DNA of 64,000 bases from contig CP065013.1 of assembly GCA_016700315.1 (NCBI GenBank), forward strand, positions 257,449-321,448. Direction: 5' to 3'. Both the position numbers and the translations under genes were made by a program. Positions 1 through 37,518 of the stretch are shown one piece after another (position 1 is the stretch's first letter; the number at the start of each line of letters is the position of its first letter). The stretch comes from Candidatus Saccharimonadota bacterium. Lineage in GTDB: Bacteria > Patescibacteriota > Saccharimonadia > Saccharimonadales > SZUA-47. The notes under the pieces are model-generated. The model made no database searches. It was not told the DNA's origin and was given only the letters and a program-made list of their open reading frames with translations.

Positions 1-113
1 AACTTGCTAGACCCTGGACCATAGTCCGTAGGAGGTACGGAGTAAGCAGTACGGGGTACGAGGTGATAATTGCTCGTCCCTAGACCCTAATCCGTAGTCC
101 CTAGCCCTAATCA

Positions 114-155
114 CTCTAACCTCTAACCTCTAACCTCTAACCTCTAACCTCTAAC
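114..155. repeat. Perfect tandem heptamer array (CTCTAAC)x6, embedded in a longer 7-nt-periodic tract spanning 8-160
   Basis: Read directly. Six contiguous identical 7-nt units. Flanking sequence is also in 7-nt register (CCCTAGA CCCTAAT CCGTAGT CCCTAGC CCTAATC). Confidence 0.95.
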
Positions 156-228
156 CTAATTTTGTCTCTTCTATCAACTATAAACCCCCTCTGGCGCTTT
201 TGCGTCTACCCCTGTAGAATATCTACAA

Positions 229-3102: not shown

Positions 3103-3232
3103 TACGGCACCACTGATTACCGATTAGCGATAGAGATCCATACGTACTCCGTGCCCTTTACTGTTTGGCTAAAGACACGAGTCATGAGTTGTGAGTTTTG
3201 TGTTTTTTAGTTTTTGTATTTTTTCAAGTTTG

Positions 3233-3260
3233 TTTAGAATTTAGAGTTTAGGATTTAGAA
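3233..3260. repeat. Heptamer array TTTAGAA TTTAGAG TTTAGGA TTTAGAA within a 7-nt-periodic tract (about 3186-3297)
   Basis: Read directly. A near-identical array occurs inside the mutM coding region at 49454-49481. Confidence 0.9.
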
Positions 3261-3320
3261 TTTTACGCTTACTACCAACTACTTGCTACTATTTGTGGAT
3301 TAATACTTTATATATGACAC

Positions 3321-4999: not shown

Positions 5000-5418
5000 C
5001 TGTCATACCTGTAAACTATCTTGAGTTCATTTGGGTTACCAGCATTTTTGCCTAAGGCCAGCCAGTCAATTTTGACTGTGAAAAAGTCCGAGTTATCAGC
5101 ACCAACACCTTTTGAAACGGCAATATTATAAAAATCTTTTTTGCAAGCAGTATTAGACGAAGGCAAAATCGCCAGATTATCCAAACAAAAATCGGAGGTC
5201 TGTGAATAGAGCGTTGTTTTGGCCGTACTATCTAGCGCCCGGATCTGCTCAATCTGAGATTCGGCGTATTTTAGCGCCTCTGTGCGCTCTTGAGTTGTTC
5301 GACTAACTCCTAGACTCCGACTAACCATTGTGTAGGACGCGCCTAGCACCATTCCAATAATCGCCATGGAAACCAGGACTTCTATTATCGTGTCGCCTGT
5401 TCTGCTGCCTAGCCGCAT
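4996..5418 (-). CDS. Minor pilin (PilV-like), prepilin-type N-terminus
   Basis: SRTG|DTIIEVLVSMAIIGMVLG has Glu+5 and a hydrophobic helix. The gene overlaps its neighbours by 4 and 10 nt. Confidence 0.7.
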   Translation of the reverse strand: MRLGSRTGDTIIEVLVSMAIIGMVLGASYTMVSRSLGVSRTTQERTEALKYAESQIEQIRALDSTAKTTLYSQTSDFCLDNLAILPSSNTACKKDFYNIAVSKGVGADNSDFFTVKIDWLALGKNAGNPNELKIVYRYDR

Positions 5419-6233: not shown

Positions 6234-6393
6234 CTTGTTTAAAGTATAGCATAAGCGTAAAAAGTCTACATCAGAGAGAATTAGTGTACTAAAAGGCTGT
6301 ACCACATTACTCAGTACAGCGAAACTAGCGGCTTCGTTACCCCGTACCCCGTACCTTGTACAGCACTTACTCGGTAGCTCGCCTAACCAACCC

Positions 6394-8386: not shown

Positions 8387-9607
8387 CTACCTCAAAGCAC
8401 CACTGCCCACAAGCCCATAAATTGGCAGTAGAATCGCACCCACAATAACCAGCGATACAATTCCTAGAACTATCATCAAAACTGGCTCAATAACGGTCGA
8501 GATCGCTTTGACCTCATTATCAACTTCTTTTTCATAGTAAACAGCCGTGCGATCCAGCATCTGCTCTAAAGATCCGGAATCTTCACCAATTTTTATCATC
8601 TGCGGCACCAAATCCAAAAAGTAAGGGTCGCCACCTATAGACTCCGATAACGACTTGCCGCCTTTAACCTTTTCGGCTGCTTTGACCACTGATTCTTCTA
8701 TCAAAACATTGTCGATCGCCCTAGAAGTAACCTGCATTGTCTGGAGTAACGGCACACCGCTAGCAACAAGAGTAGTGCCGGTTCGAGTGAACCGCGCCAT
8801 GTAAAGCTTCTTAAACAAGCCACTTATCGGCCACATATTTAGCTTGGCTGTATCTATCGCCCGCTTTCCGCCCATAGTTCTGGCCCATCTTGTTGTAAAA
8901 AACGCAGCGATAGCTACTAGAATCAACACTAACCACCAAAATCTAATCGTAAAGTCTGAGATCGCAAGCAGCAACCTAGTCACGAAAGGTAAATTTGTAC
9001 CAGGAAGACCCTTATACAGCTCCTTTACTTGGGGCAACACGGCCACAACCATGAAACCAACCACTCCGCCCATCACCAACAACACAATCACCGGATAAAT
9101 CAGCGCCCCTCGCACTTTACTGGCCAGCTCAGCATCTTTTTCTTGCTGATTAGCTAGCCTCTCCAAAGCTTTGTCGAGTGTACCCGAAGTCTCACCAGCT
9201 GCAACCAGACTAGTATAGACCTGATTAAAAATGCTAGGGTGTTTTTCCAGTGAGACAGATAGCGCCTTACCGCCTTCGACATCGTTAATTACTTGTCCAA
9301 TAACAGCAGACAGTTTCTTGTTCTTAGTCTGAGACATAACTGTTCGTAAGCTCTGTACTAGAGGTAAACCAGCATTGATAAGCGTAGAAAGCTGGCGCGA
9401 AAAGATAACTTTATCTTTGGCTTTCACTCTATTTAAAAGCCGATCAACAATATTCGCATCACCTGCACCTTTTGGCGTCAGCTCTAGTACTGTCAGCCCC
9501 TGGGCCCGCACCATTTTTGTCGCAGAGTTTTCATTTTCAGCCTCAACACTGCCTTTAACTGCCTTGCCGCTAACCGCATCCTTCGCTGTATATCTATAAG
9601 TTACCAC
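8387..9607 (-). CDS. pilC: Type IV pilus platform protein (GspF/PilC family)
   Basis: Two GspF-type repeats, three TM segments, and position between pilT and the pilins. Confidence 0.9.
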   Translation of the reverse strand: MVTYRYTAKDAVSGKAVKGSVEAENENSATKMVRAQGLTVLELTPKGAGDANIVDRLLNRVKAKDKVIFSRQLSTLINAGLPLVQSLRTVMSQTKNKKLSAVIGQVINDVEGGKALSVSLEKHPSIFNQVYTSLVAAGETSGTLDKALERLANQQEKDAELASKVRGALIYPVIVLLVMGGVVGFMVVAVLPQVKELYKGLPGTNLPFVTRLLLAISDFTIRFWWLVLILVAIAAFFTTRWARTMGGKRAIDTAKLNMWPISGLFKKLYMARFTRTGTTLVASGVPLLQTMQVTSRAIDNVLIEESVVKAAEKVKGGKSLSESIGGDPYFLDLVPQMIKIGEDSGSLEQMLDRTAVYYEKEVDNEVKAISTVIEPVLMIVLGIVSLVIVGAILLPIYGLVGSGALR

Positions 9608-10720: not shown

Positions 10721-10808
10721 CAGAATTCCCCCCTGATCTCATACTGTTTGGAACAGCCGTATAGAGCCCTGTGCCCTGAGCCCTGAGATATTCTTACTAA
10801 CCCCACCT

Positions 10809-10836
10809 GTCTCTTGTCTCTTGTCTCTTGTCTCTT
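10809..10836. repeat. Perfect heptamer array (GTCTCTT)x4; a second array GAGCCCT GTGCCCT GAGCCCT GAGATAT lies at 10764-10791
   Basis: Read directly in the pilB-pilT spacer. Confidence 0.95.
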
Positions 10837-10849: not shown

Positions 10850-12619
10850 TTATGCGTCCTCAGCCGCTACGCGGTTTACTTCACTGATACTAGTCATGCC
10901 TGCCAGCGCCTTAAGGTACCCATCCTGACGCATAGTAATCATGCCCTCTGCTTGCGCTTGTTTTTGGATATCGGTACTTGTAGCTCGCTCTAGGATAAGG
11001 TGCTGGATAGCTTCACTGATTTCAAAAACTTCGTAAAGTCCCATCCTCCCCTTAAATCCGTTTGGACTGTTTGGTTCGGGCTTACCCTTAAATAAAGTAT
11101 AAGCGGAATCGGTACTCAGGGGCAAGCTCTTATAGCCCAAATCATCGCAGAACTTAGCCAAATCTTCCTTTGTCGGCGGCAATAAACCTTTTAGGGTGTT
11201 TTGTATAACTGTTGTTTCGGTCTCATTTGTCTGGTACTGTTCGCCGCCCGGCACAATCTTTCGGACTAAGCGCTGACCAATAACAGTATGAACTGTGCTG
11301 GCTATCAAAAAAGGCTCGATTCCCATGTCTAGAAGTCGTGGCAAAATTCCAGAAGCTGAGTTTGTATGAAGCGTGCTAAAAACCAAATGGCCTGTTAGCG
11401 CTGCCTGGACAGCCAGCTGAGCCGTTTCTTTATCGCGAATCTCACCAACCATTACTACATCTGGGTCTTGGCGGAGTATCGAACGCAGACCATTCGCAAA
11501 CGTCAAACCAACTTCGGCGTTAACCTGTATCTGGTTAATCCCGCTCATCTTATACTCAACAGGGTCTTCGAGTGTTACGATATTGATCTCTTCGCTCTTA
11601 ATTTCTTGTAGCAGAGCATAAAGAGACGTTGATTTACCCGAACCTGTTGGGCCGCTAGTCAGGATCATGCCATTGGGTCGCTCAAGTCCCTTCCGAATTT
11701 CCCTAAGAGCTCGGCCGTGATAGCCCATTTCTTCCAGCTTCAAGGTAGTACCCGATTTATCCAGAAGCCTAATCACCACTTGTTCTCCCCAGACAACTGG
11801 GCTGATTGCTATACGTAGATCAACAGATTTTCCACCAATATTAACGCTAAAGTTTCCGTCCTGCGGGATTCGATGTTCGTCGATCTTTAGGTTAGATGAT
11901 ATTTTTACTCTCGAGACTAGAGGCGCCTCAATCGATTTTGGTAACTGCATTATCTCGCGCAGCACCCCGTCAACACGGCAACGAATCTTTAAGACTTTTT
12001 CTAGTGGCTCTATATGAATATCGCTTGCTTTATTTTTAATCGCAAATTCCAAGATCGCATTTAAGGCTTTAGTTATCGGCGAGTCATTAACCGTATTTTG
12101 AACATCTTTTTTATCCTGAGTAACTTCATCTATGCCTAGCTGTTCGGCCAAAACACCAGTTACGTCTTGGCTAACGTCTTGGTCGTATTGTTGTAATACC
12201 TGATGAATACCTTCTTCACTGGCAGCATAAACCTTCAGCGGCCGACCAATTTTGTTACTCAAAAAGTCGGTCGCTTGAACATTATCGGGATCAAGCATGC
12301 CAATGATAATGCGATTACCGCTCTCGCCAAGAGGCACGGCCATGTAGCGCTGTGCAAGGTCTTGCGGCACTAACTGCAAAATGTCTGGATCAACTTTAGC
12401 GTTACTAAGATCGACGTAGGGCGTGTTACTGGCCCTGGCAATTAACTTAGTCAGATGTTCATTCGTAATAATCTTTTCAGCAATTAAGAGCCCAAAAAAC
12501 GGCATTTTTCTGTCTTCAGCTAGAGCATGAAGGCTCTGTAGCTTTTCGGCCGTAACTTCACCGCCTTCAACAAGACTTTCTTCTACCCTTTTCTGTATTT
12601 CAGCCGAGATCATACTCAT
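10850..12619 (-). CDS. pilB: Type IV pilus assembly ATPase (GspE/PilB family)
   Basis: N-terminal T2SSE_N-like domain, Walker A GPTGSGKSTSLYALL, and GHLVFSTLHTNSASG. Confidence 0.92.
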   Translation of the reverse strand: MSMISAEIQKRVEESLVEGGEVTAEKLQSLHALAEDRKMPFFGLLIAEKIITNEHLTKLIARASNTPYVDLSNAKVDPDILQLVPQDLAQRYMAVPLGESGNRIIIGMLDPDNVQATDFLSNKIGRPLKVYAASEEGIHQVLQQYDQDVSQDVTGVLAEQLGIDEVTQDKKDVQNTVNDSPITKALNAILEFAIKNKASDIHIEPLEKVLKIRCRVDGVLREIMQLPKSIEAPLVSRVKISSNLKIDEHRIPQDGNFSVNIGGKSVDLRIAISPVVWGEQVVIRLLDKSGTTLKLEEMGYHGRALREIRKGLERPNGMILTSGPTGSGKSTSLYALLQEIKSEEINIVTLEDPVEYKMSGINQIQVNAEVGLTFANGLRSILRQDPDVVMVGEIRDKETAQLAVQAALTGHLVFSTLHTNSASGILPRLLDMGIEPFLIASTVHTVIGQRLVRKIVPGGEQYQTNETETTVIQNTLKGLLPPTKEDLAKFCDDLGYKSLPLSTDSAYTLFKGKPEPNSPNGFKGRMGLYEVFEISEAIQHLILERATSTDIQKQAQAEGMITMRQDGYLKALAGMTSISEVNRVAAEDA

Positions 12620-12912: not shown

Positions 12913-13013
12913 TTATCCCCTCCCCGTAGTACTAGAACTAGCTACTTTGCAACACCCAATCAAATGCCCTGCCTCAAAGGCCGCCAAGTACTGCGTACCG
13001 TGTACTGCGTACA

Positions 13014-13709
13014 TCACTTCACCACCTTAGTAGTTACGTCAAACCTAGCCTCAGGCTGGTAGTAAGTAGTTAGATCTGTATTAAGCGTCATTGAGCTATC
13101 AGAGCCAGAAAGACGCAAATTATTTACATAGAGCGGCCTGATTGATGATTCCAAAGTTTTTATAAATGCTTGGATTTTAGTGTAATCACCTGTTACCGAC
13201 AGGGGAACTTTTAGCTCTACCGGCGTTGCGCTGGCCAGTGCTGGCTGGGCTGCATTGCTTGCCGAGGAGGTAGAATTATCAGTCCCGCCCAACGCCGAAA
13301 TAGTTACTCCGCCTTGGCTCTGTACCAGTTTCTCGATGCTAGTCACAAAAGCCGGAAAATCGTATTGGCTTGGCAGCGCATCCAGCACAATTCTGCTGTT
13401 GTCGCCATCACGGGTAGCGCTACCACTTTTGCTCCCACCAAGGATATTGACATCTTCATTTGCAAACGAACCGTAGGAGCTAACCAAAGTGTCGATATTA
13501 GCCTTGTTAGTTTTCAAAGTTTTCAAGGCAGCTCGCTTTTCATTCATTACTCTTCCGTTAAATAGTGCCTGCCTCACCAGAGAACTGACGCCAAACAAGG
13601 CAAAAATAAGTGAAGCTACAGCTATCGAAGTCATTATTACGATCTTCTGATTAGCCTTATCTATCAAGGAATATTTAATGGAAAACCCTTTTTTTGAATC
13701 TCCGCCCAT
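13014..13709 (-). CDS. PilO-like pilus alignment protein (start moved to internal ATG)
   Basis: ATG at 13707-13709 lies one base after the pilN stop. Single TM then a periplasmic-type domain. Assignment rests on position after pilM-pilN. Confidence 0.55.
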   Translation of the reverse strand: MGGDSKKGFSIKYSLIDKANQKIVIMTSIAVASLIFALFGVSSLVRQALFNGRVMNEKRAALKTLKTNKANIDTLVSSYGSFANEDVNILGGSKSGSATRDGDNSRIVLDALPSQYDFPAFVTSIEKLVQSQGGVTISALGGTDNSTSSASNAAQPALASATPVELKVPLSVTGDYTKIQAFIKTLESSIRPLYVNNLRLSGSDSSMTLNTDLTTYYQPEARFDVTTKVVK

Positions 13710-14376: not shown

Positions 14377-14427
14377 ACTTGAACTCCTAAGCGTATAGTC
14401 CCTAGTCCATAGTACATAGTCTTTGGC

Positions 14428-15655: not shown

Positions 15656-15683
15656 AAGCTATTTCATGCAAAGCCTGAAATTA

Positions 15684-16162
15684 GCTAGTCCCTAGACCCT
15701 TGTCGGTTGTCCCTAGTTATCAAGCTAGACTTTTAGAAAGCTTAGTCAGCATTTTTTGTATAATCTCTAGTTCTTCAATTATTGCGGCTATTCCAATTTT
15801 ATAAATGTCTTCAACCATTATTAGTTGGGTCTCTAGTTCTGCGGCAGAGCCCGATGCTATTCGCAAGAAATGTTTAAACTCTTTGTCATTCCTCCTCCTA
15901 TAGCCCTCTGCAATATTTGAAGGTATGCTCACGCTCGATCTCTTCATCTGAGAAGATAGTGCAAAGTCTTCTGTCTTTAGCAATTTTCTACATACTAAGT
16001 ACACTTCCTTGACTAGCGATCGTGATCTTTGCCACACTTTAAGATCATTAAAGTTTTTATCCATAAACCAAATATAGATTACAAAGTAGGGATAAACAAA
16101 AGCGCTACGCGCTATCCCGTCATAAACGGCTACGGACTAGGGACTACTAGCTAGGGTCTAGC
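15684..16162. mobile_element. Four-helix-bundle gene cassette bracketed by inverted heptamer arrays
   Basis: Left array GCTAGTCCCTAGACCCTTGTCGGTTGTCCCTAGTTA (15684-15719). Right array GGCTACGGACTAGGGACTACTAGCTAGGGTCTAGCC (16128-16162). They share reverse-complementary TAGTCCCTAG / CTAGACCC words. Confidence 0.65.
15720..16064 (-). CDS. Four-helix-bundle protein (TIGR02436 / '23S rRNA intervening-sequence protein' family)
   Basis: LKVWQRSRSLVKEVY...SQMKRSSVSIPSNIAEGY.R....F..FLRIASGSAAELETQL is the family signature. Confidence 0.88.
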   Translation of the reverse strand: MDKNFNDLKVWQRSRSLVKEVYLVCRKLLKTEDFALSSQMKRSSVSIPSNIAEGYRRRNDKEFKHFLRIASGSAAELETQLIMVEDIYKIGIAAIIEELEIIQKMLTKLSKSLA

Positions 16163-20173: not shown

Positions 20174-20563
20174 GGCTTTCTGCTCCTTACCTGAGACTTG
20201 GGGGGGTTTCTGCTCAGATGATTAGTTAACTTAACTTTGGTCTATCGGTGCTAGCGGGCATTTTACTGTCCCTTGCTGACTGCTTGTACCGATCTTTTTT
20301 TGGCACGTTTTGAGCGTTCGGGCTCTAAGTTTCACAGTTAGTTTACTTTTTCCAGCAGCCTTGTTTACTTACTAAACAACCAGCTACCGAAATACTGACT
20401 AACCTTAACCTTAAAGCACACCCCAACTATACCACACCCCCACCCCCGTTGTCAATAGCCCGATTCTAGCAATTAGCGGGAACGGTAACCTTTACTTATG
20501 ATCTAATGCGCCCCTCGCCTTCCATTACCTCCCACCCAACACCCCTACAGCCAACCTTCATGT

Positions 20564-20599
20564 ACGACATGTTTGCCACGATCGTGGTTTTTATGTCGT
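20564..20599. repeat. Palindromic hairpin element copy 2 (left arm variant ACGACATGTTTGCCACGA)
   Basis: The right arm is identical to copy 1. The left arm has GTTTG in place of AAAAA, giving a U-U internal loop. Preceded by a C-rich tract. Confidence 0.85.
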
Positions 20600-20785
20600 C
20601 TTTTTATACTCACACCCCTGTAATTCACAAGGTAGACCAGGCTGCTTTCACGACTGTCACTACGACTAAGGCGCAGTCAAAACGCTAACCGTTATGCATT
20701 TATCCACCATTTTGCTTATGTTTTACCCAGACTTATCCATACCCCATCCCCACCCCACCAAACACCACTACACCTCCCTTCACGT

Positions 20786-20803: not shown

Positions 20804-20852
20804 CCAAGCGTTTTCTTGTAGGCTTCTTGGCTTTCGTATATTTTTTTGTTCG

Positions 20853-21602
20853 CTATACACGTTTACTACCCTCGACTAAGCCGAGTGAAGACTTTTGACT
20901 CAGGAAGTCAGATGTCTCATTAACCGCACGAGCTAACGCTCTCTCGGGTTCAAGATTATTGATTAAACCACTTACATACTCTGCGAAAAATGTGTCGCCT
21001 GCTCCTATAGTATCTCTTAACCCTTCAACTACATTAGACGGTACGAAATATCTTTGTGAATTGTAAAATAGCTCTACTCCAAATATACCATCTGTGATTA
21101 TTAGCATTTTCTTTTTTTGTTCTTCGACAACAGTTTTTGGTATATAACGCATTTCTTCCCTAGTACCTTTTAAGCAAAATATGCTTTTAGAAACCTCTTC
21201 TGCTGCTAACCAATTTTTTTTCCGGCCAAAAAAATCTCCATCTCTTACATAACCTTGTATATCTAAGAAAACAAGACTGTTATGAAAGTCCACGCTAGAA
21301 AGATCCCACTCATCTGATACTGTCGATACTACCACCCATTTTGCTAGTTTAATGTCTATTGTCTTACGTATCTGTCTAGGTTTTTTTATTACCCGACCTT
21401 TTTCGCCATCTCTAGTGACCAGAATTTCTACCTCCAAACTCTTACAAAGAGCGTCGTCAAACGGCACGAAGTTTTTCGAGAAGACACGTTCTAAGAAATA
21501 TGCTGGACCTCGGTAACTATCTTCCAGTAAATCTCCAGACTCACTAATAACTATGTCCCTACTCCGAGTAGAAATAATATAGACTCTGTCACTCTTATTC
21601 AT
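20853..21602 (-). CDS. PfkB-family carbohydrate/nucleoside kinase-like protein (short)
   Basis: C-terminal IGAGDTFFAEYVSGL is the PfkB signature-2 (GAGD). At 249 aa it is shorter than ribokinases. Confidence 0.65.
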   Translation of the reverse strand: MNKSDRVYIISTRSRDIVISESGDLLEDSYRGPAYFLERVFSKNFVPFDDALCKSLEVEILVTRDGEKGRVIKKPRQIRKTIDIKLAKWVVVSTVSDEWDLSSVDFHNSLVFLDIQGYVRDGDFFGRKKNWLAAEEVSKSIFCLKGTREEMRYIPKTVVEEQKKKMLIITDGIFGVELFYNSQRYFVPSNVVEGLRDTIGAGDTFFAEYVSGLINNLEPERALARAVNETSDFLSQKSSLGLVEGSKRV

Positions 21603-22137
21603 ACTTATTTACATATTCCCGCGCTTTACTAAAAGCTATGCTCACTGCTTGCTCTGGTGACTCTGCTGCTAGTACCATCTGTCTTTGTCTGTTATCCATA
21701 AATTGTCCGGCCAGCTTGTCTGACCATCCACCCATCCCTGAGACCACTACCATAGGTATACCTGCTTGATAGGCAACCGTTAGTTCGTTCAATGTCCCGG
21801 ACCCACCACTGATAGCTATTACTACATCACACGATAAGGCGAGTACAAACTCTCTCCCACCTCCTCTTTCCATACCAGTAGGTATAATTACGTCAGCATC
21901 AGATTGTAATATCTTCTTACCCTTACCATAAGTTATTCCTACCGTCAGACCACCTTTTCTTTTTGCGCCTCGACAAGCGACTGTGGAGAGAGAGTCTGAA
22001 TCTTTCTCCGCACCAAAAACCAGTATTCCGCCTTCCTCAGCGATTAACTCTCCTACTCTTTCTGCAATCAGTTCAACTTCCTTAGTATAATTAAGGTCAG
22101 CCATTGAACCCATGACTCCTATCTGAAGTTTACGCAT
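21595..22137 (-). CDS. TIGR00725 / LOG (SLOG) family Rossmann protein
   Basis: IGVMGS N-terminus and AISGGSGTLNELTVAYQAGIPMVVV (PGGxGTxxE-like motif). Overlaps the PfkB-like gene by 8 nt. Confidence 0.7.
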   Translation of the reverse strand: MRKLQIGVMGSMADLNYTKEVELIAERVGELIAEEGGILVFGAEKDSDSLSTVACRGAKRKGGLTVGITYGKGKKILQSDADVIIPTGMERGGGREFVLALSCDVVIAISGGSGTLNELTVAYQAGIPMVVVSGMGGWSDKLAGQFMDNRQRQMVLAAESPEQAVSIAFSKAREYVNKYE

Positions 22138-22260
22138 AATTATTTACTCCTTTTAGTATAATATTTGCATTAATTAATGGTAGATACTCTACTTTTTTTC
22201 ATAGAGTTTTTGCCTCCCGATTTCTTTGTACTAAACTTTCATTATTCTTTCTCCATACTA

Positions 22261-22287
22261 AAAACACCAGCTCGCGCTGGTGTTTTA
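22261..22287. terminator. Hairpin AAAACACCAGC-TCGC-GCTGGTGTTTT, bidirectional terminator candidate
   Basis: An 11-bp stem flanked by A runs and T runs on both sides, in the 520-bp spacer between the PP2C and LOG-like genes. Confidence 0.5.
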
Positions 22288-22659
22288 TTAAATTTAGTTT
22301 TCTACATCAATACGCGAACTTTGAAACTAGCAACATGGTGATGCAAATGGGACTGATTAAGGGATCTTTTCAAAGCTAGCATACTCGCATGCTAGCTCTT
22401 AGGTACCGATTTGTCAACAACCTGCACCCTTACGAGATCTTTCATAACCCAAGTAAAATAGTTTTTGTATAACCATATCGTATAACTAGCTATTGTGTAG
22501 AAGTTACATACTTTTATCAGTATTCGGCCCTACAAAGGCCAGAGAACATACAACGACAAACACAAGATTCGATAAGAGAGTAGACTCATTAAACGAATCA
22601 ACAGGGAGAAGTCTGACAGCAAAGGTTTCTTGCTTCTACGAATTAGCCACAGTTATTTA

Positions 22660-23394
22660 TTATCCCCCTACCTTAAAAACTATTAAACTTGCGTTATCTT
22701 CCGCACCATTATCGAAAACCAGCTGCATTAATTTTTTTACTATAACTTCAGGTTTTAGGCTACATAATTTAGCTATTTCATCTTTCGAAATTACTGGCGT
22801 TTCGTATTTACACTCAGTAACACCATCTGTCATAAGCAACAGTACGTCTCCACGCTCAAGTTTTATTTGATCAAATTTAGTTGCAGATAATACTGGCATA
22901 CGCGCCCTAAGACCCAAAAATGAGAAAGCTCCGAGCCATGTCTTCTCTACTTGCTGTTCGTGAATTATATGCCCATTTCTAACTAAAAACGCTAAGCTGT
23001 CTCCGTATGAATGTAGAATTAGCCTATCCTGTTTTATTTCAGCTGCCACGTAACTGCTTTCAGATGTCCTATCTTTTTCTTCGTCCATTTCACAATGTCC
23101 AAACTTTTTATAAATCATTGATTGTATTTTTAATGCGAAAGATACGGCTTCTGCCCTATTACTAATAAGCTTGCGGGATGACGCCCACACCCGCATAACC
23201 AAGACTGCCGCTTCTTCGCCCCAATGGCTGTCAGCAACAACAAACTTAAGTGTAGAGCTACCAAACTTAGCAAACCCTATCCTATCTTCATTAACATCTT
23301 TTACCAGCCCTCTTGTTGTGGCCATACAAAAATTGTTAGCATAAAAAGTTTGTATTTTTTGCTTGTTATCCTTGACGGGCAAGACGACTTTCAT
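22660..23394 (-). CDS. PP2C-family Ser/Thr protein phosphatase
   Basis: Motifs VADSHWGEEAA, LLMTDGV and AEDNASLIVFKV match the metal-binding Asp motifs of PP2C/SpoIIE-type phosphatases. Confidence 0.75.
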   Translation of the reverse strand: MKVVLPVKDNKQKIQTFYANNFCMATTRGLVKDVNEDRIGFAKFGSSTLKFVVADSHWGEEAAVLVMRVWASSRKLISNRAEAVSFALKIQSMIYKKFGHCEMDEEKDRTSESSYVAAEIKQDRLILHSYGDSLAFLVRNGHIIHEQQVEKTWLGAFSFLGLRARMPVLSATKFDQIKLERGDVLLLMTDGVTECKYETPVISKDEIAKLCSLKPEVIVKKLMQLVFDNGAEDNASLIVFKVGG

Positions 23395-23543
23395 TTTTTA
23401 GATCTCTGCCGTTTCAATGCTAAGGCCGATTGTTTGTAAGATATTAGAAAAATGGCAGGTTGAAGGCACTTTTCCAAATCAACCGTTGGATAAGGCGCAG
23501 GCCCATCTGAAGAAGGATTTGACTCTAATATGATTGTTTCCAT
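23391..23543 (-). CDS. Candidate 50-aa ORF translationally coupled to the PP2C gene
   Basis: ATG at 23541-23543 is preceded by AGAGGAAAG. Its TGA stop overlaps the PP2C ATG (ATGA). Translated by hand as METIILESNPSSDGPAPYPTVDLEKCLQPAIFLISYKQSALALKRQRSKK. Below the ORF-track size cut-off. Confidence 0.35.
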   Translation of the reverse strand: METIILESNPSSDGPAPYPTVDLEKCLQPAIFLISYKQSALALKRQRSKK

Positions 23544-23775
23544 TGTTTACTTTCCTCTAATTTTATTAAAAATCTCCCCTGAGGGAGACTTCCGTTTTTT
23601 ATTCGTAATAATAATCTAGCGGGCGCCTCCTGAAAGCAAATATGCATAATAATATCCTTCTGAAGGGTTAAGAGTTCTTTTTACCATACCGATCGATTAT
23701 AGTACCAACTTTAAATACCGTCAAACCACCCCTTCCCCCCGCCCTACCAAAAAACCTGACCTCACAAGCAATAGC

Positions 23776-24514
23776 GTCAACATAAAAACCACGACCAAAG
23801 GTTTTTATGTTGACTTATAGGGGTAAGACTACTAACATGCGGGTATTATGGGCAGCGGGAATGCGAGAAAGATTAAGCCGAGCAGGCTCAGACCAAGGAG
23901 CCCTAGCAAGGAGCTTACTTCTAAAATAATTGAGTCCGTCTTGAGAGCTAGCGTTTTAGCTGGTTTTACCGCTTCTGCACTACTGATACCAAACTCTCCT
24001 ATCGCCCTAGAGAAACCAGTTAAATTCTTCCTAGATAAATTGGATCAGAAAGAAAAAGAGCGCCAAATCCGCCGCGTAATTACTGAGATGAAACGGCAAA
24101 AAATCGTCAAAGGAAGCTACGAACATGGTCTTGAGATAACCAATAAAGGACGCGAGCGACTAGCAAAACTAGATTACGACAAACTCGAGATATCTGAACC
24201 ACCTTCTTGGGATAAAAAATGGCGCATAGTACTCTTCGACATTCCTTTTAACAAAGATGAGAAACGTAGAGATTTGTCAGAGAAACTAAAACTAACTGGG
24301 TTTCAGTTACTCCAGCTTAGCGTATGGGTGCATCCGTACCCCTGCCGCGATGAACTAAACAAAATATGTGAGCACTTAGGTGTTGCTAAGTATGTTACCC
24401 TCATAGAAACTGCCCACATTGACCACGAAGAATTACTAAAAAAGCGCTTCAAAAATCTCAAATTACAGTAGTGTGTCAACATAAAAACCTTTGGTCGTGG
24501 TTTTTATGTCGTAC
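23776..24514. mobile_element. Single-gene cassette bounded by 35-bp perfect terminal inverted repeats, each itself a hairpin
   Basis: Left GTCAACATAAAAACC-ACGACCAAA-GGTTTTTATGTTGAC (23776-23814). Right GTCAACATAAAAACC-TTTGGTCGT-GGTTTTTATGTCGTAC (24475-24514). The loops are reverse complements, and 23780-23814 is the exact reverse complement of 24475-24509. Confidence 0.7.
23848..24471 (+). CDS. PaaX-like regulator (winged helix plus Cas2/VapD-fold C-terminal domain)
   Basis: WDKKWRIVLFDIPFNKDEKRRDLSEKLKLTGFQLLQLSVWVHP matches the PaaX C-terminal pattern (W..W.lv.f.ipe..R..R..L...GF..l..svWv.P). A wHTH-like region lies upstream. Confidence 0.65.
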   Translation: MGSGNARKIKPSRLRPRSPSKELTSKIIESVLRASVLAGFTASALLIPNSPIALEKPVKFFLDKLDQKEKERQIRRVITEMKRQKIVKGSYEHGLEITNKGRERLAKLDYDKLEISEPPSWDKKWRIVLFDIPFNKDEKRRDLSEKLKLTGFQLLQLSVWVHPYPCRDELNKICEHLGVAKYVTLIETAHIDHEELLKKRFKNLKLQ

Positions 24515-24588
24515 ATTAGCTGTGTGAGCTAGAAGTACCCAATGGTTCTAGGGATGCTGCTTACGAAATTTATAACTTTGAAGATAGC

Positions 24589-25215: not shown

Positions 25216-25311
25216 CGCCTCATTATACCTCACACTTGATACAAACTCTTTATTCGCAGGTGCTGTGACAGCTAAGCCATACAAAAAAGCGCGCAACGTT
25301 AAATTCGCAAA

Positions 25312-25716
25312 TTAGATTTTAGCAACAGGTAGTTCGGGCACTCTGCCAAAATCTGAATCTAGAGAAAGCAATAAACAATCGTACTCGAGTGTCAGAGCCG
25401 CGATCCACATATCGTTGGTATTGATTGGTGTGCCCTGCTGCTTAAGTTTTTTGAATATAGCGGCGAAGAGTTTGGTGGTTTTGTCACTGATCGTAACTGT
25501 ATTAACATTCGGCATGTCTAGAAACTTCTGGAGGAGTGCTTCGTTTTCTTTCGGCCTGTTTCCAAGTGCGAAGCCAGCTCTTAGCTCGCCAACGACAACA
25601 AGCGGCACTAAAACTTGCGAATCTGGCCGAAAATATTCACGCAAGCGGCCATCGCCTCTGTTGAATGCCGAATAAGCACTAGTATCAATCAGCAGTTTCA
25701 CTTTGCTCACTGCCAT
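25312..25716 (-). CDS. vapC: PIN-domain toxin VapC
   Basis: LLIDTSAYSAF N-terminal acidic motif with distal D residues, 134 aa, and a 10-nt overlap with the upstream antitoxin. Confidence 0.85.
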   Translation of the reverse strand: MAVSKVKLLIDTSAYSAFNRGDGRLREYFRPDSQVLVPLVVVGELRAGFALGNRPKENEALLQKFLDMPNVNTVTISDKTTKLFAAIFKKLKQQGTPINTNDMWIAALTLEYDCLLLSLDSDFGRVPELPVAKI

Positions 25717-25958
25717 AACTTTTTATCTATTTTAGACAAATCAGCAATCGCTTCGTCAAATGACCCATCAAGTGTGTTAGCTCCAAAAAGCCAATCGAAC
25801 CCAGTCTCAGCTTGAATCTGCGTAGTTCCGAAAGTTTGCATAGTTAACAAATCTACTACTGTCTGGTTAAAAGATTTTCCAGTTCTTTGAGAGCGCTTTT
25901 TTATAACCATGTCAACCGCTGGTGGTATATTCCTTATAGTGTATTGAATTTTACTCAT
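25707..25958 (-). CDS. vapB: VapB-type antitoxin (RHH/FitA-like)
   Basis: MSKIQYTIRNIPPAVDMVIKKRSQRTGKSFNQTVVDLL is a ribbon-helix-helix type N-terminus. Start moved to ATG 25956-25958. Confidence 0.75.
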   Translation of the reverse strand: MSKIQYTIRNIPPAVDMVIKKRSQRTGKSFNQTVVDLLTMQTFGTTQIQAETGFDWLFGANTLDGSFDEAIADLSKIDKKLWQ

Positions 25959-26026
25959 GTATACATTGTATGCAGTATATACACTTACGTCAATCCGCTG
26001 GATCAATACTGATGACTTACACGGCT

Positions 26027-26082
26027 CTTGATACTTTATCCCTGATACTTGATACTAGTTATTATGAGTTTACAGATTGGGA
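26027..26082 (+). repeat. 56-bp direct repeat, copy A: decayed duplicate of the ychF promoter-proximal region and first 6 codons
   Basis: CTTGATACTTTATCCCTGATACTTGATACTAGTTATTATGAGTTTACAGATTGGGA differs from copy B (28110-28165) at 3 of 56 positions. Confidence 0.92.
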
Positions 26083-26201
26083 CAGATACTGCGCAGCCCA
26101 ATTACCTTTTGTGCTAAGACTAACTATGCTACCGACGGATAGAGGTGATCGTAGCTATTCCAACGAACGTACTGTTAAGACAAATGAAGAGTTACAGACC
26201 T

Positions 26202-28088
26202 CTAGCTCTTAGGCTTACTGCGTAAAGCTTTCGTGATAGTACCGAAATTCTTTGCTAGGTCGTAATCACTCCGCCCAGCAACTATTGCCTCATAAATAGC
26301 GTCATCACCAGCAAGCTTTTTAAGCCTGTTATTGAGCTGTCTCATAATTGTTTTAGGATCTTTGTCATGTACACCATTCTGACTTGCGAAGTGACTAAGC
26401 TCTTGAGCGTCAGCAGGACGCTCTGACGGGTTAAAGAGCGGTAGTGTTTCTGGACGTACTTCACGCTGTCGTGCACGAAATGCACCACTTTGCTCGGAGA
26501 GCTCTATGACTCGTTGCTCACCAACTGCGTCTAGCGCTAAAATCTGTAGTTCGTAATCACTAAAAATTAGATTTTCGGCACTTCTCCAGCCAGGTATAGG
26601 TACTGTCCTTTTACCGTCGTAGTCAGCAATTATTACCTTAACACGATCTTGCTCAAAACCACCGCTTGCTTTGTCTAAAGCAAAAAGTGTAGCTACTTCT
26701 ACAGGATCCAGCTTTCCTCTCAGTTGATAAGCGATACTTAGAATATCCTCTGGCAAATGATAATCTTCAGGCATTTCTGGCAATTGTGCGGCTGCCTTGA
26801 GATATTCAGTTGTAGCGTTTTCACGGACACCTTCACGCCCAGACTTACTGAGCCGGGGATTTACAGAGGTACTTCTGATTAACCTTTGAACGTAGTCGGT
26901 CAGTCCAACAAATGCTTTTGTCTTTACCCTACTCGTTTCGAACAATTGCATAAGCTGTCCGACAGCTCGGACTTCTGTTCGGTCTAAATGTTCAATTGCT
27001 GAACCTGCGTCCTCACCTAGTGCCCACGTTGCATCAATAATGGTAGACACTGACGATCCATCTTTGTCTACAGTTACAAATGTATTCCAAGCGTGTCCAC
27101 TTCCTTCACCGGTGCTCGTACTAAAACCGTCTGCTCGTGAGTCAGCATAACCCGCACCGTCTTTACCTCCGCCGTAAACAGCATAAGTATTATTTAGCAT
27201 ACTTAGTTCGGTTTGTGTTGCCTTGAGAGCTTCAAATACAGCCTTTACGTTTGAGGCTACGTTTCTGCAAACGCCGTTACCCTTCCAATTAGGGTCTTTC
27301 CTGCTAGCTATGCCTTCTCTTAGTAACTCAGAAGTGGTTGACTGGTCAGCTCTTGATAAATCTTTTAAGCCAATGTCCTCGTAGGTGTACCGTGAGACAC
27401 TTTGAACAAACGCAGCACTAAGCTTTACCGCTTGTTCGGGAGTCAAGTGACTTAATGAACGAATCTTTAGACTCTCTACTAACTGTTGACCGCTTTTGTC
27501 GTTTTGGAGGTAGTGAGCAAGGACAGTACGCAACTCCGTTTGCCAGCCTTCTTCCTCTACTGTATTGCGATAGGTGTGGTCGCCATTGCCACAGTCAGTT
27601 AGTGACGCTTCCAAGTAATCAGGCACAGGGTACGTTTCGCGGCTTGGTGCTACTTTAGGATTGTAGTGCTCAAGGGTCGTAAAACTAGCAAATGCTGTGT
27701 CTGTCATCTCAATGTGAGCTAAAGAACGTGTATGAACCGTCTCCAATGTACGCATTCGTTCCAGGCTATCGTGCAACGCTAACTCAACGTCCTTACCAGC
27801 ACCTACTACTTCTTTTTTTGTTCTACCTTCCTGTGAACCTGAGCCAATAATAATTCTGTGCTCACCCTCAGGGGTCCTGCCTATGAACTGTTCATCAGCG
27901 CGATAAAAATGCCCTGCCGATACTACAACACCTGATAAACCAACACGTCCAATAGCAGGTATGGCACCACTTTGTTCGGTTGGTAATTGATCTGGGCTTA
28001 TTAGAGGCTTTTGTTCTAGTACTGCGGTCATAGTTTTTATTTTTGCTTTACTCTCTGTTATCTTATCAAATAACTTGACAAATGTCAA
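26202..28088 (-). CDS. Transglutaminase-like (Cys-His-Asp) domain protein, 628 aa
   Basis: NGVCRNVASNVKAVFEAL (nucleophile Cys), GSGHAWNTFVTV (His) and IIDATW (Asp) occur in the order and spacing of the transglutaminase-core cysteine protease fold. No signal peptide seen. Confidence 0.65.
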   Translation of the reverse strand: MTFVKLFDKITESKAKIKTMTAVLEQKPLISPDQLPTEQSGAIPAIGRVGLSGVVVSAGHFYRADEQFIGRTPEGEHRIIIGSGSQEGRTKKEVVGAGKDVELALHDSLERMRTLETVHTRSLAHIEMTDTAFASFTTLEHYNPKVAPSRETYPVPDYLEASLTDCGNGDHTYRNTVEEEGWQTELRTVLAHYLQNDKSGQQLVESLKIRSLSHLTPEQAVKLSAAFVQSVSRYTYEDIGLKDLSRADQSTTSELLREGIASRKDPNWKGNGVCRNVASNVKAVFEALKATQTELSMLNNTYAVYGGGKDGAGYADSRADGFSTSTGEGSGHAWNTFVTVDKDGSSVSTIIDATWALGEDAGSAIEHLDRTEVRAVGQLMQLFETSRVKTKAFVGLTDYVQRLIRSTSVNPRLSKSGREGVRENATTEYLKAAAQLPEMPEDYHLPEDILSIAYQLRGKLDPVEVATLFALDKASGGFEQDRVKVIIADYDGKRTVPIPGWRSAENLIFSDYELQILALDAVGEQRVIELSEQSGAFRARQREVRPETLPLFNPSERPADAQELSHFASQNGVHDKDPKTIMRQLNNRLKKLAGDDAIYEAIVAGRSDYDLAKNFGTITKALRSKPKS

Positions 28089-28109
28089 TATGCTTATGTA
28101 TTAAACATA

Positions 28110-28165
28110 CTTGATACTTTATCCCTCATACTTGATACTAGTTATTATGAGTTTATCGATTGGGA
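28110..28165 (+). repeat. 56-bp direct repeat, copy B: functional ychF 5' region
   Basis: See copy A. Contains the heptamer array GATACTT TATCCCT CATACTT GATACTA and the ychF ATG at 28147. Confidence 0.92.
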
Positions 28166-29238
28166 TTGTTGGGCTGCCGAATGTCGGCAAGAGCACTCTT
28201 TTTAATGCGCTGACAGATGCGAATGCGCTGGCGGCTAATTACCCTTTTGCCACGATTGAACCAAACACCGGCATTGTACCGGTACCAGACGAGCGCCTAG
28301 GCAAGCTGGCCGATATGTACAAAAGTAAGAAAATTGTGCCCGCCACAGTAACTTTTGTAGATATTGCGGGGCTAGTTGAAGGTGCAAGTAAAGGCGAAGG
28401 CCTGGGCAATCAGTTCTTGAGTCATATACGTGCTTGTGATGCAATCCTACAGGTTGTGAGAGCCTTTGAAAGTGGCGATGTAATCAGAAGCGATAGTTCA
28501 CGAGACCCAGAACACGACATAGATGTAGTCGCTACTGAGTTAGTGCTAGCTGACCTGCAAACAGTCGAAAAACGCCTGCCCCGTATTCAAAAAGAGGCCA
28601 AAGCCAATCTAAAATTAAAACCCATGCTAGATTACATAGAGACGGTACACGGAATACTTGACTCAGGCAAGCCTCTTTTTTCAGAGTCAGGAGTCATGAG
28701 CCATGAGCTAAGAGGTTGGCTCCAAAAAGAACTGCAGCTTATGACTTTAAAGCCGATTCTGTATCTATTTAACATCGATGACGACGCACTAAGTAGCAAC
28801 GAGCTGAAAACTAAGCTTCGTAACATCGTCACACCCGCCCCCGCTCTTTTTGTTAGCGCCAAGCTAGAAGATGAGCTGCGTGGACTAGATGATATCGACA
28901 GGGCTGAAATGCTGGCAAGCTACGGCGCTAGTGAGTCTGGGCTCAACCAAGTTATCCACTCGGCCTATGACCTACTGGGGCTGCAAAGCTACTTAACCGC
29001 TGGCGAGCAAGAAGTCCGCGCCTGGACCATAAAAAAGGGTTGGACGGCACCACAAGCAGCCGGCGTAATACATGGCGACTTCGAAAGAGGCTTCATAGCT
29101 GCACAAATCGTAGACTATAACGACCTAGTTGCGGCCGGCAGCGAGCAAGCAGCCAAGTCGGCTGGCAAGGTTCGCACCGAAGGCAAAACCTACCAGATGC
29201 GTGAGGGCGATGTGGTAGAGTTCAGGTTCAACGTCTAG
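28147..29238 (+). CDS. ychF: Ribosome-binding ATPase YchF (Obg family)
   Basis: MSLSIGIVGLPNVGKSTLFNALT G1 motif, DIAGLVEGASKGEGLGN, and C-terminal GDFERGFIAAQIV. Start moved to the ATG at 28147. Confidence 0.93.
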   Translation: MSLSIGIVGLPNVGKSTLFNALTDANALAANYPFATIEPNTGIVPVPDERLGKLADMYKSKKIVPATVTFVDIAGLVEGASKGEGLGNQFLSHIRACDAILQVVRAFESGDVIRSDSSRDPEHDIDVVATELVLADLQTVEKRLPRIQKEAKANLKLKPMLDYIETVHGILDSGKPLFSESGVMSHELRGWLQKELQLMTLKPILYLFNIDDDALSSNELKTKLRNIVTPAPALFVSAKLEDELRGLDDIDRAEMLASYGASESGLNQVIHSAYDLLGLQSYLTAGEQEVRAWTIKKGWTAPQAAGVIHGDFERGFIAAQIVDYNDLVAAGSEQAAKSAGKVRTEGKTYQMREGDVVEFRFNV

Positions 29239-30470: not shown

Positions 30471-31244
30471 TTAACGCAAGCTTTTTAGCATATAAAATCG
30501 CTCGACGTTTCCTTTGCTACCGGCAAGTCCAGAATCAGCTTTGTCAACTATTTTGAACAAATTTTGTACCCAGCTTTCGAAGTCGTGAATAATTTCGCGA
30601 CGAACTTTGCTATTTTTGATTACACCCCTGTTAATTTGCTCCTTGCCTGCTTCAAACTGAGGCTTGAGCATAGCTATGATTAATGTTTTGTTATTAACGA
30701 ATAAAGAGATGTGAGGTAGTATTTTTCGCATCGAAATAAAGCTCACGTCAATCACTACTATGTCTGGTACTTCGGAGAGTACTACTCTTCGTTCCTCGTT
30801 CTTCGTTCCTCGTTCTATTTGGCTACTTTGTAGCCAAATCTCACGAATATCAGTCTTTTCGTGCAGTTCAATTTTGGGATTTCCTAACAGTGTTGGGTGA
30901 AGTTGATCCGTGCCAACATCAACTGCAACAACTTTACTAGCACCATTTTGCAGTGCAAAATCCGTGAAGCCTCCCGTGCTACTGCCCACGTCCAAAACGA
31001 CTTTATTTGTAAAATCTAGCCCTAGCTCTCTCGCTACAGAAGCCAGCTTCTCGCCTGCTCGTGATACGTACTTTCCTGCTGTAGCTGAAACTACAATTTT
31101 GTCACTAGCTGAAACCTCGAAAGCCGGTTTTGTAATAACATTACCGTTAACTCGCACCGTGCCGCGCTTAATCAAATCCTCGGCCCTAGACCGCGACTGA
31201 GTCTTGCCTGACAAAAATAAAACTTGATCAAGCCGCCGCTTCAT
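30471..31244 (-). CDS. tlyA: TlyA-family 16S/23S rRNA (cytidine-2'-O)-methyltransferase
   Basis: N-terminal S4 domain (RLDQVLFLSGKTQSRSRAEDLIKRGTVRVNG) and FtsJ-type SAM motif VLDVGSSTGGFTD. Confidence 0.88.
   Translation of the reverse strand: MKRRLDQVLFLSGKTQSRSRAEDLIKRGTVRVNGNVITKPAFEVSASDKIVVSATAGKYVSRAGEKLASVARELGLDFTNKVVLDVGSSTGGFTDFALQNGASKVVAVDVGTDQLHPTLLGNPKIELHEKTDIREIWLQSSQIERGTKNEERRVVLSEVPDIVVIDVSFISMRKILPHISLFVNNKTLIIAMLKPQFEAGKEQINRGVIKNSKVRREIIHDFESWVQNLFKIVDKADSGLAGSKGNVERFYMLKSLR
30787..30839. repeat. Intragenic module inside tlyA: heptamer array (CTTCGTT CCTCGTT)x2 plus adjacent 9-bp-stem hairpin ATTTGGCTA-CTTTG-TAGCCAAAT
   Basis: Read directly. Translated in frame as WLQSSQIERGTKNEERRVV. 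Confidence 0.9.
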
Positions 31245-33123: not shown

Positions 33124-33169
33124 TGTAAAAATCCTCCTGATTTTTAGATTAATGTTTGATGATTAACGA

Positions 33170-33543: not shown

Positions 33544-33585
33544 TCTTCGTAAATCCTTAATCGTTAATCTTTAATCAACTAAGGC

Positions 33586-34880: not shown

Positions 34881-34910
34881 TCGTCACTCCTTTCTTCTGC
34901 GAAGAAACGA

Positions 34911-34988: not shown

Positions 34989-35114
34989 GACCTGTAACTT
35001 CTTTCGGTTTCTAGGTTAGGCGCACCAGAGGCCCCAACCAAGAAGTTAATTAATATTAAATATAGTATAAAGTATTATGAATAAAGTATCAAGTGCTAAG
35101 TGCTAACAAATGCG

Positions 35115-37425: not shown

Positions 37426-37518
37426 TTAATACTGTTACAGTATACCGCTTATCTTAAATTTCAGATATACCGAATGTTGTAATAATAACAAAATTCTTAT
37501 GCTTTGTCAACTGATTGA

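Follow-up and report, generated by a model that had tools for sequence, protein, structure and literature searches.

Heptanucleotide tandem arrays in the spacers and core genes of a Saccharibacteria genome segment

The DNA analysed here is a stretch of 64,000 nucleotides from a Candidatus Saccharimonadota bacterium (assembly GCA_016700315.1, contig CP065013.1, positions 257,449 to 321,448), called the window below, and its subject is a set of short tandem arrays of 7-nt units scattered through that stretch. Window genes include polA, ftsK, the genes for RNase J and PNPase, type IV pilus genes and one tRNA-Arg gene, the latter being the sole match in an Rfam scan of the window. An initial annotation had described the arrays as a window-wide family resembling the short tandemly repeated repetitive (STRR) sequences of heterocystous cyanobacteria, and had guessed a genome of the candidate phyla radiation (CPR) type. 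The guess was right: the best matches of the window PNPase are metagenome-assembled genomes (MAGs) of Candidatus Saccharibacteria, with 72-76% identity, and relatives of the window FtsK are also Candidatus Saccharibacteria or CPR MAGs. These PNPase relatives and the gene annotations rule out a cyanobacterial origin of the window; no photosynthesis genes were found among the annotated window genes.

Excess of period 7

Tandem Repeats Finder (TRF) returned 52 rows for the window, 24 of which have a period of 7. A strict lag-match detector found 8 period-7 arrays, compared with 0 in 20 dinucleotide shuffles, and no other period from 2 to 13 rose above its shuffles. With a more sensitive detector, 30, 20 and 17 period-7 arrays were found at scores of at least 8, 10 and 12, respectively, while the shuffles gave 1.4, 0.2 and 0. 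Exact tandem duplications of at least two copies numbered 20 at period 7, against 3.2 expected, with periods 8, 10 and 11 at expectation. Triplet periodicity aside, no period other than 7 is in excess. Autocorrelation of the intergenic DNA peaks at lags 7, 14 and 21, whereas coding DNA gives a period-3 signal alone. The arrays, at a density of about 0.44 per kb, cover 9.7% of intergenic bases and 0.59% of the bases in open reading frames (ORFs), a 16.5-fold difference. Their composition (GC 0.41 versus 0.39, AT skew -0.21) has a modest strand and base bias that is not informative.

The detectors thus bear out the window-wide occurrence, the excess over shuffled controls and the mainly intergenic location of arrays that are STRR-like in kind. 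Every other locus listed in the initial annotation has a lag-7 identity between 0.52 and 1.00; the weakest of these (3268-3297, 16126-16162, 15684-15719 and 40411-40462) are supported by shared unit families and not by their own score. Further arrays, absent from that list, were found within ORFs at 28684, 30786, 44022, 44060, 44280, 49428, 58546 and 59916, and in a spacer at 45240. The proposal that the units fall into a few families holds in part: identical consensus units are shared by 6 pairs of arrays against 0.83 expected, but about half of the arrays are singletons, with units found only once in the window. Near-identical unit pairs number 26 where 13.4 +/- 4.8 are expected, and unit sharing between loci is only moderately above chance. 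The recurring families in the window and its flanks are TAGNCCC (5 arrays), CTACCAT (3), CGAGGAA and TTTAGAA.

Exact-protein look-ups recovered 40-odd contigs from NCBI, ENA, JGI and Logan that are 93-100% identical to the window; these and the more distant loci discussed below are designated by L numbers. The same arrays recur in more than 10 independent assemblies from these four sources and therefore are not an assembly artefact.

The spacer upstream of tRNA-Arg

The leftmost arrays of the window lie in the spacer upstream of the tRNA-Arg gene. Here and below, coordinates are window positions unless another contig or strain is named, and features listed with no strand have none assigned.

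8-113: degenerate compound array of (TAGNCCC)x3, (GTACGGN)x4 and (CCCTAGN)x5, from direct reading and lag-7 identity
114-157: perfect (CTCTAAC)x6.3 found by TRF with 100% matches; 6 units here, 2 in L096 and L097; the two L098 modules have 5 and 3

Direct reading gives TAGACCC TGGACCA TAGTCCG at 8-28, GTACGGA GTAAGCA GTACGGG GTACGAG at 36-63 and, from 77, CCCTAGA CCCTAAT CCGTAGT CCCTAGC, the units originally reported. The accompanying statement that nearly every base of 8-160 sits in a 7-nt register was slightly generous, since the phase breaks, for example at 64-76; lag-7 identity over 8-113 is 0.61, compared with a background of about 0.27. The perfect six-unit run had been placed at 114-155, in agreement with TRF.

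The match of strain L098 to the window begins at position 7, to the left of which the L098 sequence continues past the window edge. In this strain the complete spacer, from a divergent membrane-protein gene to tRNA-Arg, is about 570 nt long and consists almost wholly of heptamer arrays. A module, (TAGACCC)n - CTAATCA - (CTCTAAC)n - ...ATCAACTATAAAC, occurs in it twice in tandem with 92-94% identity. Positions 8-160 are the second copy of this duplicated module in a hypervariable spacer, and the window edge therefore cuts through an array cluster. Left of the window lies a compound block of about 70 nt that is an inverted copy of 3229-3299, with 93% identity that includes the non-repeat edges, and 64-104 is 80% identical to 15676-15716. 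From the tandem module and the inverted block copies it follows that, besides slippage, pre-formed array mosaics are duplicated and dispersed. L095 and L091 carry other arrays in place of (CTCTAAC)n; wholly different arrays are found in this spacer in strains at about 99% identity. As read from the sequence, the tRNA gene has a likely extended -10 promoter, and the variable (CTCTAAC)n sits upstream of it and not between promoter elements. The + strand of the flagged region folds no better than its shuffles (z -0.54).

Variation between strains

Unit number at orthologous spacers varies between strains, a comparison that the initial annotation had recommended. Strains that are 96-100% identical differ by whole units (+7, -7, +14 and -28 nt): the (CTCTAAC) array at 114-157 is 28 nt shorter in L096 and L097, the array at 3187 differs by +14 nt, that at 3268 by +7 nt in L100 and that at 35091 by -7 nt in L187, and a (CAGTNNN) array in the tRNA-Arg spacer has five units in L095 and three in L091 (14 nt). 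Degenerate arrays are mostly identical in length across up to 10 strains, and the coding arrays sampled keep their length. It is the perfect arrays that are dynamic, while decayed or degenerate ones are stable in length. Variable arrays are found in the spacer upstream of tRNA-Arg and in spacers between convergent or co-directional genes; on inspection, none of them is placed between a -35 and a -10 element.

Over all strain loci, 4.0% of positions in non-coding arrays are indel sites; the figure is 0.55% for the rest of the intergenic DNA and 0.19% for coding DNA, so that their density in arrays is about 7 times that of other intergenic DNA. Segregating sites are less unevenly distributed (4.9%, 2.9% and 2.5%, respectively), and several of the substitutions turn a unit into the variant of a neighbouring unit. 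Of 104 alignment or contig ends, 22 lie no more than 10 nt from an array, though such zones make up 2.5% of the window, and several Logan contigs terminate within arrays, an indirect hint of length heterogeneity within populations. This pattern is the behaviour of slippage-prone simple-sequence repeats (SSRs). In practical terms, the arrays break short-read assemblies, whose contigs end in them, and they could serve for strain typing, as STRR-PCR does in cyanobacteria.

Arrays translated within genes

At least seven arrays are translated in frame, two of them in PolA and the others in TruB, a TlyA-like methyltransferase, YchF and Fpg.

28684-28714, plus strand: ychF coding array, GAGTCAG GAGTCAT GAGCCAT GAGCTAA, translated as ESGVMSHELRG
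30786-30815, minus strand: gene for an S4+FtsJ (TlyA-like) methyltransferase, sense (GAACGAG/GAACGAA)n, translated as ERGTKNEERR
44022-44089, minus strand: truB compound array, sense (GAACGAN)n + (CTACCAN)n, translated as ...NDERREATPTTNYHLPST, with family matches
44280-44296, minus strand: truB (ACTGAGG)x2.4, found by TRF and identical in 9 strains
49428-49479, minus strand: Fpg/MutM ORF, T-rich sequence and (TTTAGAN), translated as LKSKSEILKNNKNKKEKN (LKSKSEILK...)
58546-58577, minus strand: polA perfect (TTCCTCG)x4.6, found by TRF, sense (CGAGGAA)n, translated as NEERGTRNEE
59916-59947, minus strand: polA, sense (CCATCTA)n, amino acids 379-390, translated as HLPSTIDQLL, of the same family as the arrays at 34956 and 44022

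The arrays of PolA and TruB sit in variable loops. The NEERGTRNEE loop of PolA is 10 residues longer than in Taq polymerase and is identical in strain L199, and both polA arrays are identical in strains down to 96.6% identity. The array of the TlyA-like gene belongs to the same family as the polA (CGAGGAA)n, and the (CCATCTA)-type part of the truB array, which encodes HLPST, to a family also present in polA. In YchF, the array residues align with ordinary YchF residues with almost no change in length. The truB loop stands out: the window and four strains have the 72-nt (GAACGAN)n + (CTACCAN)n array, while five strains whose flanks are about 97% identical carry (GAGTCATGAGCCAA)x2 at exactly matching boundaries. 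In distant relatives this loop is plain and has 8 residues.

Inverted arrays, hairpins and PF05635 genes

Some arrays of the window form inverted pairs.

34910-34988, minus strand: inverted pair (AGTTRGT)x5 / (CTACCWT)x4.7, an interrupted hairpin upstream of rpsF
15684-15719: (TAGNCCC)-type array, one arm of an inverted pair flanking the PF05635 gene 15720-16064
16126-16162: (GGGNCTA)-type array, the other arm of that pair
33145-33179: (TTAATCN)-type array, one arm of an inverted pair flanking the PF05635 gene 33241-33543
33552-33584: (AATCNTT)x4, the other arm of that pair

The arrays at 34910-34946 and 34956-34988 are predicted to form an interrupted stem of about 33 bp, roughly 30 nt upstream of the rpsF start; the fold has a z of -5.2 to -6.1 on both strands and the element is invariant in length in 7 strains. 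The other two pairs each enclose a gene of family PF05635 (23S-rRNA intervening-sequence (IVS) protein or Avd-like four-helix bundle). One of these genes, 33241-33543, interrupts the conserved rpsF-ssb-rpsR operon between ssb and rpsR; the other, 15720-16064, is truncated to 70-87 amino acids in most strains that cover it. The long-range stem joining the flanking arrays appears in the minimum free energy (MFE) or centroid fold, with weak z values of -2.5 and -1.65. By analogy, the inverted arrays around these genes recall the stem around rRNA intervening sequences. A general link between PF05635 and heptamers was rejected: the sole such gene in 2.34 Mb of distant loci has no adjoining arrays, and the pairing therefore stays a local observation.

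Further hairpins were found in a distant CPR contig, L179 (Ga0207646_10000025), in which three spacers (5234-5303, 8689-8772 and 12463-12557) are filled by near-perfect heptamer hairpins of 30-52 bp with mirrored unit variants and z values of -8 to -17. Convergent genes flank one of these hairpins, and two end a few bases before the next start codon. Most solitary arrays gave no such stable hairpin.

Other arrays of the window

The remaining arrays are non-coding or of ambiguous coding status.

3173-3215: (GAGTCAT/GAGTTGT/GAGTTTT); L095, L097 and L099 carry a 14-nt duplication of two units
3229-3299: compound (TTTAGAN)x4 + (CTTACTA-type)x4 found by TRF; a +7 nt variant in one strain
6338-6361: (TACCCCG)x3, just past the prepilin-peptidase stop, where the N-terminus of the following ORF is predicted; ambiguous as to coding
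10766-10787: (GCCCTGA)x3 in the pilB-pilT spacer; strain substitutions swap unit variants
10808-10836: perfect (TGTCTCT)x4.1 found by TRF, with no stop on either strand and a length invariant in 10 strains
12988-13015: degenerate (GTACNNN)x4, from TRF and strain comparison
14396-14420: (TAGTCCN)x3.5 in the tail of a called 75-amino-acid ORF; coding status ambiguous
26027-26082: (CTTGATA)-type array in copy 1 of a 56-nt direct repeat into which the opening bases of ychF are included
28110-28165: second copy of this 56-nt repeat, which extends into the start of ychF
35052-35106: (AAGTATN)n + (AAGTGCT)x2.3 just past the ftsK stop; one AAGTGCT unit lost in L187 (-7 nt)
40411-40462: degenerate (TCTGTNN)x7, from TRF and lag-7 identity
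45240-45264: (ATNCAAA)x3.5 in a spacer, from the sensitive detector and strain comparison

The two copies of the 56-nt repeat are 95% identical and contain the arrays at 26031-26058 and 28114-28141. They bracket a gene of 628 amino acids (26202-28088) that is absent in strain L081, and in this arrangement they resemble a target-site or att duplication.

Stop codons in the arrays

The initial annotation had noted that many arrays place stop codons in all three frames and had offered frame-independent translational insulation as one function. Such stops have also been reported for TAACTGA repeats (PMC4679880). All three frames are closed in 48% of 21 non-coding arrays on the + strand, 38% on the - strand and 62% on either strand, compared with 9-15% of other intergenic segments of equal length. 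Random intergenic heptamers placed in tandem give 37%, 45% and 62%. Because chance heptamers do equally well, the three-frame effect is arithmetic only, with no enrichment of stop-bearing units. In 8 of the 21 arrays, including the perfect (TGTCTCT)x4, the frames are left unclosed on both strands.

Occurrence in relatives

The scans of relatives covered genome contigs with no more than 76% PNPase identity and metagenomes with no more than 64% full-length FtsK identity; no relatives of intermediate divergence were found between these values and about 93% nucleotide identity. In 1.42 Mb from 80 species-level relatives there were 24 period-7 arrays, or 0.17 per 10 kb compared with 3.1 in the window. 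Most relatives have no period-7 excess, the density being about 18-fold lower. Four of them (L004, L016, L046 and L054) have heptamer arrays and almost nothing at other periods, and L046 uses GGTAG-T / CTACCAT units, as in the window. A further 0.92 Mb of metagenomic CPR loci had its arrays concentrated in a few contigs (L179, L159/L160 and L157). The arrays are confined to few relatives and contigs, and the heptamer trait thus has the patchy distribution known from the literature on bacterial SSRs; it is restricted to some lineages and shared by a few within the CPR. A search of full-text literature found no description of heptamer tandem repeats in CPR or Patescibacteria, in keeping with what the initial annotation had supposed.

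Relation to known heptamer repeats

The precedent named in the initial annotation, the STRRs of heterocystous cyanobacteria, is apt in kind, but a heptamer excess is not peculiar to those organisms and has been reported for many bacteria. According to the accounts of Mrazek et al. (2007) in PMC4679880 and PMC4692102, the long SSRs of many bacteria belong more often to the heptanucleotide class than to any other, heptamers are over-represented among SSRs with units of 5-11 nt, and the proposed cause was slippage tied to the 7-nt stretch of DNA that the replicative polymerase contacts. As PMC4692102 summarises that literature, longer repeat runs are commoner in non-pathogens and in large (>4 Mb), high-G+C genomes. 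The window arrays resemble prokaryotic long heptamer SSRs in the heptamer excess, the proposed slippage origin and the patchiness among close relatives, and they have the period-7 excess, whole-unit length polymorphism and non-coding bias of that class. Unlike the large, high-G+C genomes in which longer runs are commoner, the host here has 45% G+C. Its phylum consists of small-genome episymbionts.

The cyanobacterial STRRs of Calothrix, Anabaena and Nostoc were reportedly described by Mazel and colleagues in 1990, and STRR1-3 have the units CCCCAGT, TTGGTCA and CAACAGT. Like the window arrays, they are short 7-nt tandem arrays with several families per genome, dispersed, mainly intergenic, often with different families adjoining and with no established function; several dispersed and recurring families are present in the 64 kb and its flanks. 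None of the three STRR units occurs in tandem on either strand of the window. Since both host and units differ, the window arrays are not STRRs sensu stricto. They are found in a different phylum and a small, reduced genome, with many in-frame copies in housekeeping genes and a very high local density. Cyanobacterial STRRs are also mentioned in PMC4692102, and inverted pairs, copies within ORFs and strain variation have all been reported among STRRs and TAACTGA, GGGAATC and GGGGAYT repeats (PMC4679880, PMC4692102).

The TAACTGA repeats of Beggiatoaceae, cyanobacteria and Bacteroidetes (PMC4679880) are likewise intergenic heptamers in 2-6 copies, with occasional copies in ORFs translated as repeat peptides. 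That system has one dominant unit, while the window has many and TAACTGA is never in tandem there; an association with an alternative RpoC-like gene was not seen in the window. The GGGAATC repeats of Xanthomonas and GGGGAYT repeats of Nostoc share the intergenic bias, the inverted pairs capable of forming stem-loops and the variation in length and sequence at given spacers between strains (PMC4692102). Their units are G-rich and quadruplex-forming; those of the window have no G-tracts, and neither GGGAATC nor GGGGAYT occurs in tandem.

Repetitive extragenic palindromes and bacterial interspersed mosaic elements (REP/BIME) are mosaic repeats dispersed through intergenic DNA, with hairpins in their transcripts, and Rickettsia palindromic elements (RPE) are repeats tolerated in frame within genes. 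The window arrays resemble both in working only, through mosaic hairpins and in-frame repeats, respectively; the units of these elements are unique-sequence palindromes of 35-150 nt, whereas the window has 7-nt units in arrays. REPs owe their mobility to RAYT transposases, and no such (IS200/IS605-like) transposase was found among the 20 of about 75 window ORFs screened against family libraries. The abstract of a study on Borg elements reports fast-evolving tandem repeats, in spacers and ORFs, that create new low-complexity protein segments (PMC9879509); the likeness to the window arrays, drawn from that abstract, concerns their presence in spacers and ORFs and leaves unit length aside. Arrays in the window ORFs are also built of 7-nt units, and therefore only net changes in multiples of 3 nt keep the frame. 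Heptamer SSRs as such are known; what is notable here is their occurrence in the CPR, their density, the small-genome host and the strain-variable, repeat-encoded loops in core enzymes.

Origin and meaning of the arrays

The arrays are probably, if not securely, slippage-driven heptamer SSRs that spread further by block duplication, are filtered by selection, mostly lack a dedicated function and have expanded in one Saccharibacteria lineage. Whole-unit indels, an excess already at the two-copy stage, block copies, an intergenic bias and a random level of stop content are the observations that carry this reading. Slipped-strand mispairing in steps of 7 nt would create and resize arrays and point mutation would then erode them. 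Selection would act as a filter that lets arrays accumulate in spacers; within genes they would survive only where the net change keeps the frame, the sense frame is free of stops and the site is a tolerant surface loop. Multi-array blocks have in addition undergone tandem duplication, and copies of them have reached other loci in direct or inverted orientation. The consequences (long RNA or DNA hairpins from inverted pairs, strain-variable loops, and breakpoints of rearrangement or assembly) are likely to be mostly incidental.

Several points weigh against this account. Local slippage does not explain how one site comes to hold arrays of unrelated families in strains that are about 97-99% identical, as in the truB loop and the tRNA-Arg spacer, nor how arrays overwrite segments of ancestral length, as in YchF and the L186-type TruB loop. 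The exactly mirrored inverted pairs of L179 and the hairpin of constant length in 7 strains hint at selection or a special mechanism. The sample is also narrow, being a 64-kb window of one genome with short flanks. Unexplained replacement and length-neutral overwriting therefore leave room for an RNA-hairpin role in the inverted-pair subset and for templated swapping.

That the arrays are functional RNA elements, with inverted-pair stems in polycistronic transcripts serving as RNase III sites, 3'-end stabilisers or terminators in the manner of REP/BIME or 23S IVS stems, is on the whole unlikely. The strongly folding and length-invariant 34910/34956 pair, the stems bracketing both PF05635 genes and the hairpin-filled spacers of L179 speak for it. 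However, an inverted partner exists for only 3-4 of about 28 window arrays, the flagged locus folds like its shuffles, the PF05635 flanks are only weakly significant and no clear U-tract follows the hairpins. Arrays are, moreover, more polymorphic than other intergenic DNA, and inverted duplication can yield perfect palindromes mechanically.

We think it quite doubtful that a templated process writes or swaps array cassettes, be it through arrays that prime ectopic template switching or through the activity of a specialised polymerase or reverse transcriptase. Such a process could account for the unrelated arrays at identical truB boundaries and in the tRNA-Arg spacer, for the length-neutral replacement in YchF and the L186-type TruB loop, for the families shared by spacers and coding loops in both orientations, and for the mosaic block copied to a second locus. 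Yet no candidate enzyme was found in the window: among the neighbours only the PF05635/Avd-like genes are suggestive, and the single gene of that family found in distant loci lacks adjoining arrays; ancient alleles with flanks homogenised by recombination would look alike, and few loci were sampled. If it operated, spacers and surface loops of essential enzymes (PolA, TruB, YchF, Fpg and TlyA-like) would be overwritten, near-identical strains would carry unrelated repeat-encoded peptides at one site, and a previously unrecognised mutational route to protein-loop diversity would exist in a minimal genome.

Contingency loci, in which changes in unit number switch or tune adjacent genes by phase variation, as in the heptanucleotide promoter repeats of Haemophilus hmw, are very improbable here. 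Copy number does vary at the perfect array upstream of tRNA-Arg, at 3187 and at 35091, and some arrays are near start codons; but most arrays are equal in length across about 10 strains, the neighbours are housekeeping genes (rpsF, ftsK, pilB/pilT and tRNA-Arg) and not surface antigens, the variable (CTCTAAC)n lies upstream of the likely promoter of the tRNA gene, and the in-frame polA arrays are stable. Translational insulators selected for TAA or TAG in every frame can hardly be what the arrays are, for their closing of frames, well above that of other intergenic DNA, is matched by random tandem heptamers, 8 of 21 arrays fail on both strands and at least 7 are translated.

The range of heptamer SSRs, known mainly from large genomes (cyanobacteria, Xanthomonas, Burkholderia and giant sulfur bacteria), extends with these arrays to an ultra-small, host-dependent CPR bacterium. 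The strain-variable, repeat-encoded loops of PolA, TruB and YchF show that repeat dynamics at the DNA level remodel core proteins even in a streamlined genome. The many near-identical strains in public metagenomes offer natural material for the question, dating from 2007, of why bacterial slippage favours units of 7 nt.

Other features of the window

Strain L081 (GCA_029781765.1) lacks about 2.9 kb matching window 25247-28132. This segment holds the 628-amino-acid ORF, which has no NCBIfam match, and two small overlapping ORFs (25312-25716 and 25707-26006) with a toxin-antitoxin-like layout. L081 in turn has two genes that are absent from the window, with no repeats at the junctions: an AstE/AspA-like gene between RNase J and ftsK (L081 6406-7365, versus window 37492-37521) and an EamA transporter gene after the TlyA-like gene (L081 14408-15271, versus window 30483-30486). 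Arrays as marks of strain-specific indel junctions were considered and rejected, three of the four junctions with L081 (J1, J2 and J4) having no array; the 56-nt repeat around gene 26202-28088 is the sole junction that fits the idea.

The minus strand carries 59 of the roughly 75 window ORFs, and cumulative GC skew falls monotonically over 1-64000; the two fit a single replichore with a strong gene-strand bias. Exact-protein look-ups for the ORFs at 55074-55514 and 57072-57362 gave no match. Between rpsF and ssb lies an ORF of 105 amino acids (34180-34497) with no Pfam match, which is kept in all strains and missing at the rpsF-ssb junction of distant Saccharibacteria.

Direct repeats of 47-57 nt, 139-270 nt apart and 86-96% identical, occur at 40686-40732/40826-40872, 48642-48690/48781-48829 and 55089-55145/55359-55415. 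Some overlap gene starts, for example in the PNPase 3' region, and they look like local duplications. A separate family of perfect or near-perfect palindromes of about 36-46 nt, ACGACATAAAAACCACGATCGTGGTTTTTATGTCGT, is unrelated to the heptamers and was found at 2073-2118, 20560-20605, 23780-23814 and 24475-24518; two of its copies flank a block, 20826-23788, that is absent or replaced in strain L081.

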